This document shows, piece by piece, positions 33,316-62,588 of a stretch of 64,000 nucleotides of DNA (its first letter is position 1; each line of letters starts with the position of its first letter). The position numbers and the translations under genes are program-made. The DNA lies in contig CBFHKU010000005.1 in NCBI GenBank assembly GCA_965656495.1, forward strand, positions 70,853 through 134,852. Reading direction: 5' to 3'. The notes beneath the pieces were generated by a model, which did not search any database, was not told the origin of the DNA, and worked only from the letters and a program-made list of their open reading frames with translations. The stretch is from Coraliomargaritaceae bacterium. Lineage in GTDB: Bacteria > Verrucomicrobiota > Verrucomicrobiia > Opitutales > Coraliomargaritaceae.

Positions 33316-34287
33316 ATGCCAACGCCACGCGAGCTTGACGTCCAAGCCCTCATCGAGGGGGTCCGCGCCAATGACCGCGCCCGCCTTGCGCAGGCCATTA
33401 CCCTCGTCGAGAGCCGCGCCCCCCGTCACGCCCAGGCCGCGCACGCCCTCATGCAGGCGCTCCTCCCGCACAGCGGCGGCGCCCTCCGCCTCGGCCTCAC
33501 CGGCGTCCCCGGCGCCGGCAAGAGCACCTTTATCGAAGCCCTCGGGATACATCTCTGCAGCCTCGGCAAAAAAGTCGCGGTCCTCGCGGTCGATCCCAGC
33601 AGTTCCGTGCACGGCGGCAGCATCCTCGGCGATAAAACCCGCATGGAAACCCTCTGCCGTGAACCCAATGCCTTCATCCGACCCTCACCCTCCGGCGACA
33701 GCCCCGGCGGGGTCGCCGCCCGCACCCGCGAAGCCCTCCTCATTTGCGAAGCCGCCGGATACGATGTCATCCTCGTTGAAACCGTCGGAGTCGGGCAGGG
33801 CGAAACCGCGGTTCGCACCATGACCGATTGCTTCCTCCTCCTTCAAATCACCGGCGCCGGAGACGCCCTTCAGGGAATCAAAAAAGGCATCGTCGAACTC
33901 GCCGACCTTATCGTCATCAACAAAGCCGACGGCGACAACACCACTCCCGCCGAACTCGCCCGCGCCGAATACGAACGCCTCCTCCAAATCCTCCAACCCT
34001 TCACCCCCGGCTGGAAACCCCGCGCCGCCACCTGTTCCGCCCTCCATAAAAACGGCATCGACACCATCTGGGAACTCGTCGAGACCTTCCGCGCCGAGAC
34101 CCAACAAAGCGGCGTCTTCAAGGAACGCCGTCAGGCACAGAACCTCGACTGGTTCAACACCCGCCTCCAACAAGCCGTCATGGAAGACTTCAAACAAAAA
34201 CACGCCCAACGCCTCACCGAAACCCAAACCGCCGTCGCCCAAGGCACACTCCCCGTCGCCGTCGCACTGCAACAAATGCTGGGGTAG
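33316..34287 (+). CDS. meaB: Methylmalonyl-CoA mutase-associated GTPase MeaB
   Basis: GVPGAGKST, AVDPSS, GGSILGDKTRM, VETVGVGQ, NKAD. Confidence 0.96.
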   Translation: MPTPRELDVQALIEGVRANDRARLAQAITLVESRAPRHAQAAHALMQALLPHSGGALRLGLTGVPGAGKSTFIEALGIHLCSLGKKVAVLAVDPSSSVHGGSILGDKTRMETLCREPNAFIRPSPSGDSPGGVAARTREALLICEAAGYDVILVETVGVGQGETAVRTMTDCFLLLQITGAGDALQGIKKGIVELADLIVINKADGDNTTPAELARAEYERLLQILQPFTPGWKPRAATCSALHKNGIDTIWELVETFRAETQQSGVFKERRQAQNLDWFNTRLQQAVMEDFKQKHAQRLTETQTAVAQGTLPVAVALQQMLG

Positions 34288-34288
34288 G
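33995..34288 (+). repeat. 294-bp direct repeat, copy 1 (3' end of intact meaB)
   Basis: Matches 36509-36802 except GGCACACTC vs GGCGAACTC (2 nt). Confidence 0.97.
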
Positions 34289-34347
34289 GGGCAAAATTTT
34301 GTTCAATGGCGGCTACCGCGTTGTGATTTTGAGGGTTCGTTTCCTTC

Positions 34348-34404
34348 TGTGAAGGTCGAGGATGAGGGACGGCGAATGCCGTTACCATTATCGACTTTTT
34401 GGGC
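34348..34404 (-). mobile_element. Degenerate integron attC-like site overlapping the methyltransferase stop
   Basis: Minus strand GCCCAAA-AAGTCGATAATGGTAACGGC-ATTC-GCCGTCCCTCATCCTCGAC-CTTCACA: bulged hairpin bounded by R''-like and R'-like boxes, both core triplets altered. Confidence 0.65.
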
Positions 34405-35341
34405 TCAGCTTTTGTTTCTTTTGCCTGAGGTACATGGCCCGCTCCTCCAGAACTCTATCGATTCCTGCCATCCATTCTAAATTTCGCCCAATTACTAGCT
34501 CTGTCATCGCTGCGTGATGTGTGTTTTTCATCGCAATAGGCTTGGCTTGCAAACAATGTATTCTAGCTAGTTCTTTAACTTCTGGAGCGTTATCATACGT
34601 CATGATGAAGTCCCCTGACAATTCAGAACACACTGAAAAGAGTCTTTCGTGATCTAGCCTTGAATGAGTGTATAGACGACTGCCTGCCTTCTTGCCTCCC
34701 GCGGTGTAGGGGGGGTCGATAAAGAAAACTGCATCTTTATCCTTCTTTTTCTCTTCTAGAACTTCAAAAGCATCCCGACACTCAAACGACAAACGTGTCC
34801 GAATCAGATCAATATTCCGCATTCTTTTTGCTAGAGTGGATGGATACCATCTAGACAATATTCCCTTTCCTGCCTCTCCATTTTTAAGAAATCCAGAACC
34901 AGCAGCTAGAATTCCTCCATGAAATGTTCGATTCTTAATAATGGTCTGAAAGGCAATTTCTCGAGATGATCGTCTGCTTGAAGCGAGAGCATCAATCGCA
35001 TTCTCTTTCGTCATCTCGAAATTTAATATCCTCGATGCAAGCCACCCAGCATCTCCTCCAACTAGGGTCTCCCATACTGCAGCAATCTCTCTGTCTAGTT
35101 CTATCAGATGGGCTTCATCGACTAGGTTCTCGGAAACTGATGTTAGGGAAACAATACCTCCTCCTGCAAATGGCTCTACCAAGCGCTTTGGTTTTTGTGG
35201 CTGGCTCAAAAGCCATTCCCTTAAGCGAGGGATAAACCAAGTCTTTCCTCCAGGGTAACGAAATGGGCTCAATTGAGGAACAGAGGCCACATTCACTGCC
35301 TTTGGGAGTTCAATATCTTCACTGAATAAGAGCTTCTGCAT
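34388..35341 (-). CDS. Dam/D12-class amino-methyltransferase of a type II R-M system
   Basis: SPFRYPGGK, EPFAGGG (motif I), FIDPPY (motif IV); lower GC than flanks. Confidence 0.92.
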   Translation of the reverse strand: MQKLLFSEDIELPKAVNVASVPQLSPFRYPGGKTWFIPRLREWLLSQPQKPKRLVEPFAGGGIVSLTSVSENLVDEAHLIELDREIAAVWETLVGGDAGWLASRILNFEMTKENAIDALASSRRSSREIAFQTIIKNRTFHGGILAAGSGFLKNGEAGKGILSRWYPSTLAKRMRNIDLIRTRLSFECRDAFEVLEEKKKDKDAVFFIDPPYTAGGKKAGSRLYTHSRLDHERLFSVCSELSGDFIMTYDNAPEVKELARIHCLQAKPIAMKNTHHAAMTELVIGRNLEWMAGIDRVLEERAMYLRQKKQKLSPKSR

Positions 35342-35344
35342 ATC

Positions 35345-36223
35345 TTAGTTACCAAAGGGAGATTCGATCGACTTATTCTCTGGAGGATTCTCCAACTTCT
35401 CATCAACCTTCGATTGGAGGATCTTCAAAAACTTCTCTATTTTCCCAACTTTGGGACGTGTAATTCTATTCAGAGCATCTGAAAACTTGGTATATACGGT
35501 CTCAACTCTCTGTAGCTCAAATGACCGACCTTCACGATCTACCAAGTCATAAATTAACCATGACATGTCTGCATCTTCTTTGGGTACTTGCTCCAAATCC
35601 GGAAGTGTCTCGAAAAATGCAAGGTCTAGCGCTACCGCCATCTTTTTCTTCCATGCATTCAAGATCCCACCCTTGAATATCAACTGAGGCGCAAGGCGCT
35701 TACGAGATGATGAGAGAAAATCTGGCCTTGGGTAATTCGGCTGCTCAGTCCAGTCCATATCTGCGTTTTTGCGACAGTCTGCCATGTAGTGTGCGAATGG
35801 GTCTCGAACATTTCCAGAAATATAGACTGCTTGAATCTCAAGCGATCCAAAGTCGTAGACTTGTCCCTTCTCATCATAAGCGACTAGAACAACATCAATA
35901 TTTCCTGCGGACTTGCCGTAGTAGTCTGTAAGCCTTACTTCGGTTAGCGATGTCCATGTCGCATTTTCTCCGAAAAAGAAATCCGCAGCATCATCTGCGA
36001 TAAGCCAATTTTCTCGGAATCTTACTGGACATGTGATCACGGGTCTATTCCCATGCATAACGCTGCAAACGCCTAGAGGATTCTTAGCTTTATCTTTTGT
36101 GCAGCTTGGAACCTTATTATTGAAGGGGCATAACCGGTTTTTTCGAAAACGCTGTGCTCTCGCTGACATTTCCGTGGGGATATGCCCAAATACTTCTGCC
36201 AAGGGATGCTGAGTTTCTTTCAT
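35345..36223 (-). CDS. NotI-family type II restriction endonuclease
   Basis: N-terminal Cys4 pattern (CPF...CTK...GVCSV...TCPVRF), EVRL...GNIDVVL...LEIQAVYISG nuclease core, RPDFLSSSRKRLAPQL; 3 bp from the MTase. Confidence 0.85.
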   Translation of the reverse strand: MKETQHPLAEVFGHIPTEMSARAQRFRKNRLCPFNNKVPSCTKDKAKNPLGVCSVMHGNRPVITCPVRFRENWLIADDAADFFFGENATWTSLTEVRLTDYYGKSAGNIDVVLVAYDEKGQVYDFGSLEIQAVYISGNVRDPFAHYMADCRKNADMDWTEQPNYPRPDFLSSSRKRLAPQLIFKGGILNAWKKKMAVALDLAFFETLPDLEQVPKEDADMSWLIYDLVDREGRSFELQRVETVYTKFSDALNRITRPKVGKIEKFLKILQSKVDEKLENPPENKSIESPFGN

Positions 36224-36273
36224 TCCTACTTTATTGTGCGAGCGATTTTACGGGCTTGCGACACTTAAATTTT

Positions 36274-36339
36274 GCCCAACTTGTTAATGTGACATATAGA
36301 GGGGTAGCCTCGGAATTAATCACATCCAACTGGTAGTGA
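36274..36339 (-). mobile_element. Integron attC-like site between the truncated membrane-protein gene and the R-M pair
   Basis: Minus strand TCACTAC-CAGTTGGATGTGATTAATTCCGAGG-CTAC-CCCTCTATATGTCACATTAACAA-GTTGGGC: starts just after a TGA stop, forms a bulged hairpin, ends in canonical GTTRRRY. Confidence 0.7.
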
Positions 36340-36342
36340 TAT

Positions 36343-36510
36343 TCATTTTGTGCAGAAGGTCTCTAGTGTGGACCAAAGAAAAAGAATGCCATAAAGTGCT
36401 GCTAAAATCCAAGGAACATTTATCTCGGTATGGGTGAAAGGTAGATATTTCTCCGGATTCTTTCCTTCTCCAAGCCCTTTCCATTCATCTTTGAATAACT
36501 GGAGAGGTAA
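36343..36510 (-). pseudogene. C-terminal fragment (~55 aa) of a small membrane protein, RipA/octameric-membrane-protein-like
   Basis: LPLQLFKDEWKGLGEGKNPEKYLPFTHTEINVPWILAALYGILFLWS...*; low GC; 5' part replaced by the meaB copy. Family recognised from memory of the motif. Confidence 0.6.
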
Positions 36511-36802
36511 CCCTTCACCCCCGGCTGGAAACCCCGCGCCGCCACCTGTTCCGCCCTCCATAAAAACGGCATCGACACCATCTGGGAACTCGTCGAGACC
36601 TTCCGCGCCGAGACCCAACAAAGCGGCGTCTTCAAGGAACGCCGTCAGGCACAGAACCTCGACTGGTTCAACACCCGCCTCCAACAAGCCGTCATGGAAG
36701 ACTTCAAACAAAAACACGCCCAACGCCTCACCGAAACCCAAACCGCCGTCGCCCAAGGCGAACTCCCCGTCGCCGTCGCACTGCAACAAATGCTGGGGTA
36801 GG
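36509..36802 (+). pseudogene. meaB: Duplicated 3' fragment of meaB (294-bp direct repeat, copy 2)
   Basis: 292/294 identical to 33995-34288, including the TAG stop; no start codon context. Confidence 0.95.
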
Positions 36803-36806
36803 TTTT

Positions 36807-36900
36807 TTATTTCTTCTCTTCGAGATTAATAAACTCAAAGCGACCAACTTTTAGTAGATTTTCGCGGGCCTCATCAGCAAGTTTACTTGTCTCAGGAGTA
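36807..36900 (-). pseudogene. Possible C-terminal gene remnant convergent on the meaB copy
   Basis: Open frame ...TPETSKLADEARENLLKVGRFEFINLEEKK* in low-GC DNA, cut off upstream by repeat DNA. Confidence 0.35.
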
Positions 36901-37026
36901 TCGCTTCTACGCTTCCAAGGTTCAACTAACAACTTTCAAGCCCACAATCACTCCGTGCCCTTGGTGCCTCGGTGGTGAATGAACTGCAGGAACCACGAAT
37001 GAGGGAGAGTAAGATTAAGATTAAGA
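36901..37026. repeat. 80-bp dispersed repeat copy 2 plus (TAAGAT)n motif
   Basis: 36901-36980 matches 20587-20666; 37005-37026 is the reverse complement of 20473-20494 (21/22). Confidence 0.88.
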
Positions 37027-61911: not shown

Positions 61912-62588
61912 TGGGGTGCTTCGGCGGCGGGCGGGTTGTTGATGGTGACGGCTTCGCCGATGTTGTGCTGTGGCACGACTGCGCCGCCGGAGATGATGAG
62001 TTTCATGCCCTCGGCGATGCTCATATCGAGGCGGGTGACATCCTCTTGTGGGAGCATGAGCAGAAAACCGCTGGTGGGGTTGGGCGTGGTGGGGACGAAG
62101 ACGTTGACGATTTCCTCCCCGGTTACGGATTGGGTTTCCCCCCGCGCCTTACTGGTCAGGAAGCCAAGGACATAGGATTTCTTGCGGGGGTATTCGAGCA
62201 GCACCACCTCCTGAAAGACCGCTTTCTTTTGTTGACTGAAGGTGTCGACGATTTGCTTAACGGTGCGATAAACGGTGTTGATGAAAGGCAGGTTGTCCAG
62301 AATGCGTTCAAAACTGCCGAGAATCATACGCCCAAGCACAAGGCGAGAACCATAACCAAAGAGGGTGATCAACAGGAGCACGACGAAAATTGAGAGCACC
62401 TCGAGTCCAAACTGCACGACCGGCATATCCCGCCATTCGGGATCGAGGTAGAAGAAAAAGAAATTACTCGCAGGGGTTCCGACTCGGTCGAGGAGGACAT
62501 TAATAACTACAATCGTCACGCTCAGGGGCAGAATGACAATAACCCCTGTCAGGAATGCGTTTCGTAGTGAACGGAGGATAGCTTTCAT
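61908..62588 (-). CDS. DUF502 family membrane protein
   Basis: LTGVIVILP, VLLEYPR, VFVPTTPNPTSGF, KLIISGG. Confidence 0.92.
   Translation of the reverse strand: MKAILRSLRNAFLTGVIVILPLSVTIVVINVLLDRVGTPASNFFFFYLDPEWRDMPVVQFGLEVLSIFVVLLLITLFGYGSRLVLGRMILGSFERILDNLPFINTVYRTVKQIVDTFSQQKKAVFQEVVLLEYPRKKSYVLGFLTSKARGETQSVTGEEIVNVFVPTTPNPTSGFLLMLPQEDVTRLDMSIAEGMKLIISGGAVVPQHNIGEAVTINNPPAAEAPQ

Follow-up and report, generated by a model that had tools for sequence, protein, structure and literature searches.

A former integron cassette encoding a restriction-modification pair, bracketed by copies of the meaB gene end in a Coraliomargaritaceae genome without integron integrase

The window analysed here, a stretch of 64,000 nucleotides from a Coraliomargaritaceae bacterium (G000:C5:70853-134852; contig CBFHKU010000005.1 of assembly GCA_965656495.1; genome of 2.06 Mb in 31 contigs, 99.36% complete), carries behind the host gene meaB a restriction-modification (R-M) gene pair which, judged from its sequence, is a former integron cassette that is probably no longer mobile. 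The account that we favor, with moderate confidence, is that a slice of a cassette array was joined behind meaB without integrase, homology-facilitated illegitimate recombination giving rise to an insertion with long target duplication. This account draws on the cassette ancestry of the pair, the decay of its attC sites, the conservation of both R-M genes, the duplication of the meaB end, the absence of the integron integrase gene intI and the occurrence of the unit in two host backgrounds, all of which are documented below. An original prediction, made from the letters of the window, had already invoked an IntI-independent movement of the pair; it named no route, and a 294-bp duplication may now supply one.

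Cassette Origin of the Restriction-Modification Pair

The R-M gene cassette measures 1,926 bp from crossover to crossover (34354..36279, minus strand) and is delimited both by its self-complementary ends and by the limits of its homology to the loci L027 and L028. Behind the crossover G it starts with TTGGGC, which complements its own R'' box GCCCAA at 6/6 bases, and such start-to-R'' complementarity is also observed between many neighbouring sites beside intI in relatives. DNA similarity to L027 and L028, the closest loci, begins at 36273, directly behind GTTGGGC, and stops at 34395-34399, within GCCCAA; since these limits are the predicted cassette ends, they support a cassette origin. The cassette ancestry of the pair is further argued for by L027 and L030, which present strong attC matches at both ends of the homologous pair (57.6/23 and 55.7/39.6 bits, respectively). 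Over 81 homologous loci, the covariance model described below gave strong matches at both ends in these 2 and weak ones in L103, 2/81 being a lower bound as the model was built on one family. The motifs announced by the original prediction (GTTGGGC at 36280-36274, GCCCAA(A) at 34404-34398 and the TTGGGC/GCCCAA complement) are all in the sequence at these coordinates, and its suggestion that the pair looks like an integron gene cassette agrees with the homology limits at the boxes and with the attC-flanked loci L027 and L030.

Two incomplete cassettes border the R-M cassette. The first is represented by the last third of an 8xMP membrane-protein gene that lacks its start (36343..36508, minus strand; PF24838 positions 91-135 of 136) and to which an intact 152-aa homolog, P0002, is 78% identical. 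The third is a stub of 65 bp from the crossover (59 bp past the attC box; 34289..34353, minus strand), cut at the meaB stop, which by eye resembles a cassette start beside intI in L130 and would have lost its start codon. From the array slice that had been predicted, the full R-M cassette and the third-cassette stub are thus recovered, and the membrane gene is reduced to the last third of the 8xMP gene. A diverged version of the third-cassette stub (34289-34347) was encountered as loose ends in sequencing run X11, so that variants of the unit exist.

In the loci L026 (3930-5860) and L028 (3930-5880), the R-M cassette, with decayed attC, lies a few bases behind a host stop codon. In L026 it begins 4 bases past the stop of a host gene (miaA-like, by eye), and no bracketing repeat was found at either locus. 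One R-M cassette thus appears settled in parallel in three genomes (the window, L026 and L028).

Judged by the catalytic motifs of both members, the pair is an ordinary Type II R-M system. The NotI-family restriction endonuclease (292 aa, intact; 35345..36223, minus strand; PF12183, E 9e-61) exhibits four invariant cysteines (32, 41, 53, 65) and D110/E129/Q131 in an alignment from which L088 was dropped. The DNA methyltransferase of the D12 class (317 aa, intact; 34388..35341, minus strand, stop at 34390-34388; PF02086, E 5e-14) harbors the motifs EPFAGGG (residue 56) and DPPY (209) and matches PD-Lambda-5_B (E 9e-40) and MTase_II (E 5e-30) of PADLOC. Compared with L026-L028, nonsynonymous and synonymous divergence (dN and dS) amount to 0.055-0.084 and 1.0-1.6 for the endonuclease, and to 0.076-0.095 and above 1.9 for the methyltransferase; by this comparison, both genes are under purifying selection. 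The homolog set comprised 80 of 248 loci encoding endonuclease relatives. Within it, records of Opitutales and Puniceicoccaceae supply the homologs closest to the pair, and the methyltransferase follows the endonuclease in 76/80 loci. No solved structure matched the endonuclease by sequence, and one distant structure chain, 7M6B, matched the methyltransferase (E 1.4e-6). Palindrome avoidance across the genome singled out no recognition target.

Decay of the attC Sites

The attC site belonging to the 8xMP cassette (site 1; 66 bp, 36339-36274, minus strand) starts 3 bases past the membrane-gene stop and ends in GTTGGGC, and that of the R-M cassette itself (site 2; 57 bp, 34404-34348, minus strand) begins with GCCCAAA and overlaps the methyltransferase stop. 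Their triplets read TAC/GTT and AAA/CTT, so that three of the four core triplets are altered, as had been predicted.

Both sites were compared with an attC family assembled from 20 stretches around intI genes of family members (L121-L140), R-M loci being excluded. Among 68 candidates collected, 52 entered a covariance model of 11 pairs, kept in 93% of cells, whose covariation score of 0.73 was reached by 0/500 shuffles. Site 2 was the top match of this model in the 64 kb, at its exact coordinates (12.1 bits, E 0.11), and stands near short chance matches of 11 bits; site 1 gave no match at E<=10. Neither site was retrieved at E<10 by a genome scan with an nhmmer profile of the attC family. In nearest-neighbour alignments, 0/300 shuffles reached the score of either site, and control windows reached it in 3/1320 cases for site 1, whose nearest family member is L126:4447-4515, and in 0/1320 cases for site 2. 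Folding energy was discarded as a proof of attC nature, site 1 folding no better than shuffles (z -0.47 and -0.93; 55 and 33 of 200 shuffles fold equally well); site 2 forms a modest hairpin (z -2.10 and -2.63; 8 and 5 of 200 shuffles). By these comparisons, both sites are decayed members of the attC family found beside intI in relatives, an assignment made with high confidence for site 2 and with fair confidence for site 1, which would be the more decayed of the two. Of the two bulged hairpins in the original prediction, that of site 2 folds and that of site 1 is not discernible by energy alone; the covariance model built here likewise favored site 2, though weakly, and missed site 1. The related hairpins anticipated beside cassette-like open reading frames (ORFs) do exist, as the family next to intI in relatives to which the nearest-neighbour scores connect both sites.

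The constraint on the triplets was read from 82 model matches beside intI, in which R'' retains its first A in 82 and its C in 79 cases, and R' its G in 82; 31 of these matches lie outside the training set, and the set still leans toward the model. This count was used instead of the 52/52 triplet invariance of the training set, which is partly built in by the selection filter. The middle base of the triplet is often variable beside intI (ATC in 22 and GAT in 29 of 82), and, according to the available part of PMC10127599, the motif 5'-GNT-3' is conserved and its middle base is lax. The three triplet changes of the window fall exactly on the near-invariant positions. In site 2, 4/11 model pairs are broken, three of them L-box pairs, and the pattern points to a decay that is general and not aimed at the triplets. 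An inactivation specific to the triplets was considered and rejected, as L-box pairs are broken too and 9/12 other matches listed in the genome keep normal triplets. Excision of the window sites by IntI has likely been lost.

About one third of the attC sites of L121-L140 present ATC/GAT for AAC/GTT, a variant that travels with the cassette since each cassette start complements its own R'' box. At L027:3860-3950 and in the arrays of L122 and L126, a recurring motif that resembles a group II intron end inserted into attC is located directly before several attC sites.

Insertion Behind meaB and Duplication of the Gene End

The intact host gene meaB (methylmalonyl-CoA mutase GTPase; 33325..34287, plus strand; PF03308, E 1e-106; GC 0.646) is the target of the insertion. 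Two direct-repeat copies of 294 bp, 99.3% identical and the only two in the genome, bracket an insert of 2,220 bp. Copy 1 (33995..34288, plus strand) comprises the last 293 bases of meaB and 1 further base and lies inside the working gene, and copy 2 (36509..36802, plus strand) is a displaced, non-coding meaB 3' end. The insert has a GC of 0.442 vs. 0.646 for meaB and contains only the two R-M genes and the two cassette stubs, its ORF list and a Pfam scan yielding no mobility gene. Both of its ends lie in the middle of a cassette, away from attC crossovers, the left one in the third cassette and the right one in the 8xMP gene; cutting both neighbouring cassettes in this way, they agree with the IntI-independent movement that had been predicted.

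The repeat copies differ at 2 adjacent bases, copy 1 having the state of congener G006 and copy 2 that of G005/G001. This difference is compatible with one copy being the allele of the donor and the other a recipient allele that was displaced, two bases being thin evidence. At the right junction, E-G-L codons fit both the 8xMP gene and antisense meaB (36509..36516, minus strand), and P0002 reads EEGLPLQ vs. EGLPLQ in the window where the antisense meaB copy enters the 8xMP fragment; donor and target would so have shared a microhomology of about 8 bp, a length taken from the protein homolog. Read in antisense, the meaB copy is open and shares its frame with the 8xMP fragment (36343-36789, minus strand); the two make up a 148-aa chimeric ORF, entered in databases as a protein (P0001, P0005) and probably not expressed.

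Congeners present a single repeat copy at the meaB loci of G006 and G005, and a search for the insert in 5 congeners returned the meaB repeat as the only match. Behind meaB, G006 carries other cargo and has a contig break, and G005 and G001 a different downstream gene. The cargo of G006 (L217:1-2100) consists of a low-GC gene and a KAP NTPase; attC remnants suspected in it by eye gave no model match at E<=1.

No intI gene exceeds the TIGR02249 cut-off in the genome (best 80.8 bits vs. 265) and none matched in 6 congeners, so that the pair is, as predicted, stranded outside any integron. Among family genomes, intI is over the cut-off in 40/101. The genome holds 11 strong attC matches; in G006 and in G003 there is a single match, and in four congeners there is none (150 candidates scored per genome). 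One attC array (C1:310-316 kb) lies inside a gene-end duplication pair, another (C1:169-173 kb) is enclosed by a 30-bp pair located, by eye, at the end of a tRNA, and an array at C7:19-21 kb begins directly behind a displaced gene-end copy. On the same contig, a low-GC island of 9.4 kb (C7:9459-18975) is found between copies of the end of a chorismate-binding gene, the attC array (C7:19000-21230, L160) follows directly and its last site abuts the displaced copy.

Overall, 29 two-copy direct-repeat pairs occur in the genome. The 15 duplications examined (13 from these pairs and 2 from a separate listing) overlap a called gene end; they measure 32-294 bp and affect unrelated genes, 13 at 3' ends and 2 at 5' ends, with parA, trpA, lepA, rlmN, msrA and a chorismate-binding enzyme among their targets. 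Most of the 3'-end duplications (9/13) end <=11 bases from the stop, with a spread of -28 to +58 bases, and in 4/13 cases the repeat stops before the stop codon. A mechanism seeking stop codons was set aside, host-gene survival giving the same spread. Contiguous empty sites were identified for 4/6 loci, namely parA (G005), DUF445 (G006, G005, G001), and lepA and an fmdB-like gene (both G005); in the other two cases, trpA and the chorismate-binding gene, congeners show a far flank that is not contiguous. The cargo of the other duplications includes Clp protease-like, PIN and DUF4143 ATPase proteins and no restriction enzyme among the genes checked.

Two of these duplications have features of their own. 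The trpA duplication (C1:197300-198916, L151) ends before the stop, and a PIN-domain insert supplies a six-residue tail. A 212-bp copy of a gene 5' end (C3:59609-59820 / 62132-62343) shows 33/38 silent differences, and would derive from a diverged working allele or paralog and not from decay, since its differences are mostly silent.

Occurrence in Other Samples and Transfer

The insert is present in 4/4 sequencing runs examined, from 4 studies, none of which is flagged as the source, and the runs containing window DNA are of marine or aquatic origin; the host is presumably a marine verrucomicrobium of the Opitutales type. In X4 it forms one contig with zero differing letters. In X17 and X11 it differs at 14/2161 and 11/1990 letters (99.4% identical), and the host flanks differ at 42/1224 and 42/1241 letters (96.6%), with G006 at 96.3%; every listed host position in these two runs is of the other, sister-species type. 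Because the insert is 99.4% identical while the host flanks differ at about 42/1,230 letters, a recent transfer of the unit from one species to another is probable; the spare copy matches its host. Moreover, protein record P0001 displays the same fusion, with the G006 residue at 4/4 discriminating sites and a shorter spare copy. Host types are mixed in X4 and X5, and X4 and X17 also contain the G006 allele, with the KAP NTPase gene after the meaB stop. Insert depth is about 1/3 of meaB depth (X4, X11, X17), a ratio that does not represent a share of cells.

Proposed Origin and Alternative Explanations

The homologs show that the R-M pair became an integron cassette in a relative that carried intI; a slice of a pre-assembled three-cassette array would then have reached an intI-less lineage. 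The incoming meaB and its array would recombine by homology at the recipient meaB, and the far end would attach through a short microhomology lying 294 bp within the recipient gene. As an outcome, the working meaB would stay intact, the recipient gene end would be displaced as copy 2 and the 8xMP gene would be cut. Without an integrase to use them, both attC sites have decayed, and the R-M genes have stayed under purifying selection. Through the two meaB arms, ordinary recombination may add the unit to relatives, with their downstream sequence kept, or loop the unit out, a loss that R-M addiction would oppose, as losing an R-M pair harms the cell. We tentatively extend this account to an integrase-free life of cassettes, in which the spare gene end would serve as homology arm and gene ends, in lineages lacking intI, as stacking points for defence cassettes.

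Several findings weigh against this origin. A clean empty meaB site with both flanks was found in none of the relatives. The 8xMP gene, searched with P0002, occurs in 0/100 family genomes and, since no donor array was found, the microhomology relies on a protein homolog of 78% identity; in metagenome contigs, 8xMP was seen at at least 2 distant, uninformative loci. The right junction coincides with a GTT triplet usable by an integrase. The 6 differences of the spare lepA copy include a stop and 2 amino-acid substitutions, which is plain decay, and lepA gives no sign of a second allele. Concerning the samples, the contigs of X4 and X5 extend 30 letters into each repeat copy, one under the bridging rule, only X11 bridges the right junction (47 letters), and the contigs hold no long-range link of the R-M genes to the sister-species chromosome. 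The genes comEC and dprA are present in 6/7 and 7/7 genomes of the genus, respectively, and also in 10/14 control genomes, so that they are no proof of competence. Finally, nothing upstream of the R-M pair was picked up by a promoter scan, which gave 3 sites for the region vs. 3.4 expected; this result was also counted as fitting the promoterless ORFs of gene cassettes.

The GTT triplet, on the antisense strand of meaB, speaks for an off-target integrase, which, at attG or a secondary site, would have created the right junction or initially brought the array behind meaB, where later deletions trimmed it. We regard this as unlikely, even if intI is common in the family and the cassette of L026 stands so close to a host stop codon without a detected bracketing repeat. 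Cassette insertion at attG and imprecise excision (10.1101/2022.09.11.507474), as well as integrase-made rearrangements at secondary sites (PMC10127599), are reported in the available parts of these papers. However, the incoming side of the junction is in the middle of a gene and not at a cassette start, intI was detected in none of 7 genomes of the genus, and the insertion of a cassette leaves no 294-bp duplication of its target. An earlier IntI step may nevertheless have taken place in a donor lineage. Across the duplications of the genome, an integrase signature was sought and rejected, the triplet occurring at 7/32 junctions vs. about 8 expected by chance.

The restriction enzyme could itself have driven the insertion, through a double-strand break at the target repaired with duplication. 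Double-strand breakage was suggested as a common cause in the available part of Furuta et al. (2010; PMC2853133), and among 53 homologous R-M loci (those of the 80 with >=1 kb of flank), 4 lie between direct repeats of 30-154 bp. Since other duplications enclose no restriction enzyme among the cargo checked, a nuclease seems unnecessary, and we hold this explanation to be improbable.

Slightly less probable still is the remnant of an integrase-bearing island that would have targeted the meaB 3' end, brought a replacement end and later lost its integrase by deletion. Prophage e14 targets icd and carries a replacement gene end. The meaB repeat indeed gives back an exact gene end, the cargo that G006 carries at this point is a different one and 2 duplications of the genome are found at tRNA ends (by eye). 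On the contrary, the 3 tyrosine-recombinase loci of the genome all lie outside the window, 15 unrelated targets with repeats of 32-294 bp would need many integrases, and an exact replacement end is at odds with the 4/13 repeats that stop before the stop codon and with trpA, whose new tail comes from the insert. That the repeat is a mixed-strain assembly artefact, or the attC likeness due to chance, is very improbable despite the mixed host types in X4 and X5 and the weak scores of the window sites, as contigs from other studies and an independent protein record again show the insert and its right junction, and homologs carry strong attC at the same positions.

Other Features of the Locus

Beyond copy 2, a 90-bp low-GC piece (36803..36892, minus strand), which by its sequence looks like the tail of another foreign gene, abuts a cut repeat similar to repetitive extragenic palindromic (REP) elements. 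This REP-like repeat of about 110 bp (36893..37000, no strand assigned) is dispersed in the genome (copies at C5:150802, C5:91431, C4:139037, C4:139315 and others) and is probably a bystander. The bin 36664-36847 has zero depth in runs X11 and X17. Two Y1 transposases (G000:C9:69024-69299 and C15:9382-9630) are located among clusters of REP-like repeats, and 0/6 congeners have one. A REP transposase was rejected as the agent of the insertion, such enzymes being restricted to these 2 in G000 among the congeners, yet the unit is present in the sister background.

Comparison with Known Systems

Taken singly, insertion with long target duplication, R-M cassettes and orphan cassette arrays are all known already, and the surprise for a specialist is therefore moderate. 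No paper joining cassette arrays to target duplication was found in the literature covered, which included few subscription journals and no bioRxiv supplements. The pair itself has the same families, in the same order, as Type II R-M systems with PF12183 and PF02086.

The locus resembles attC site clusters in which the integron-integrase is missing (CALIN) or single attC sites lacking integron-integrases (SALIN), in that two attC-derived sites and cassette-like genes in one orientation are found with no intI nearby or in the genome. Regarding the two sites that define a CALIN, the model of the own family gives one weak match (site 2) and one miss (site 1), and the nearest-neighbour comparison recovers both. 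Unlike CALIN and SALIN, the window has decayed sites, an array cut within cassettes at both ends and flanking copies of a host gene end. The origin of CALIN in intI-less genomes was called surprising and left open in the available part of PMC4889954. The four origins listed in the parts available of 10.1101/2022.09.11.507474 or PMC4889954 do not include a duplication-flanked transfer, rearrangement (iv) being the closest. If the proposed origin is true, such a combination may account for some of the orphan attC clusters of genomes without intI. If it is general, integron cassette pools would feed defence genes to lineages that never carried an integron, and attC searches would undercount cassette-derived defence genes because the sites decay.

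Homology-facilitated illegitimate recombination was proposed for displaced 3' ends at type VI secretion system (T6SS), Rhs and contact-dependent inhibition (CDI) loci (PMC5361080, in its available part). As described there, these loci similarly show one homologous anchor, one illegitimate joint, an old 3' end pushed downstream and stacked cargo. Their anchor is an effector gene whose 3' end is swapped, whereas the window unit is anchored in a housekeeping gene whose end is restored, and its cargo is oriented toward the host gene.

Insertion with long target duplication of R-M genes was reportedly described by Nobusato in 2000. The window unit is close to those of Furuta, Abe and Kobayashi (2010), as it has R and M genes in an insert of <20 kb (2,220 bp), no mobility gene and a duplication of >30 bp (here 294 bp in two copies, theirs reaching about 420 bp in the available part of PMC2853133). 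It departs from them in that its cargo would be a slice of an integron array and in that many duplications of this genome are without R-M genes; the word "integron" has 0 occurrences in the accessible text of PMC2853133. According to the same text, the release and re-infection of repeat-flanked R-M units lack experimental evidence. The small natural unit in two sister backgrounds offers a test of the questions of orphan-attC origin and R-M unit transfer and, if the proposed origin is true, comparative evidence that R-M units flanked by repeats undergo the transfer postulated in their life cycle. The locus adds a genome-wide count of duplications, a link to several attC arrays and a sign of inter-species transfer at the window unit, the evidence for the latter being comparative, not experimental.

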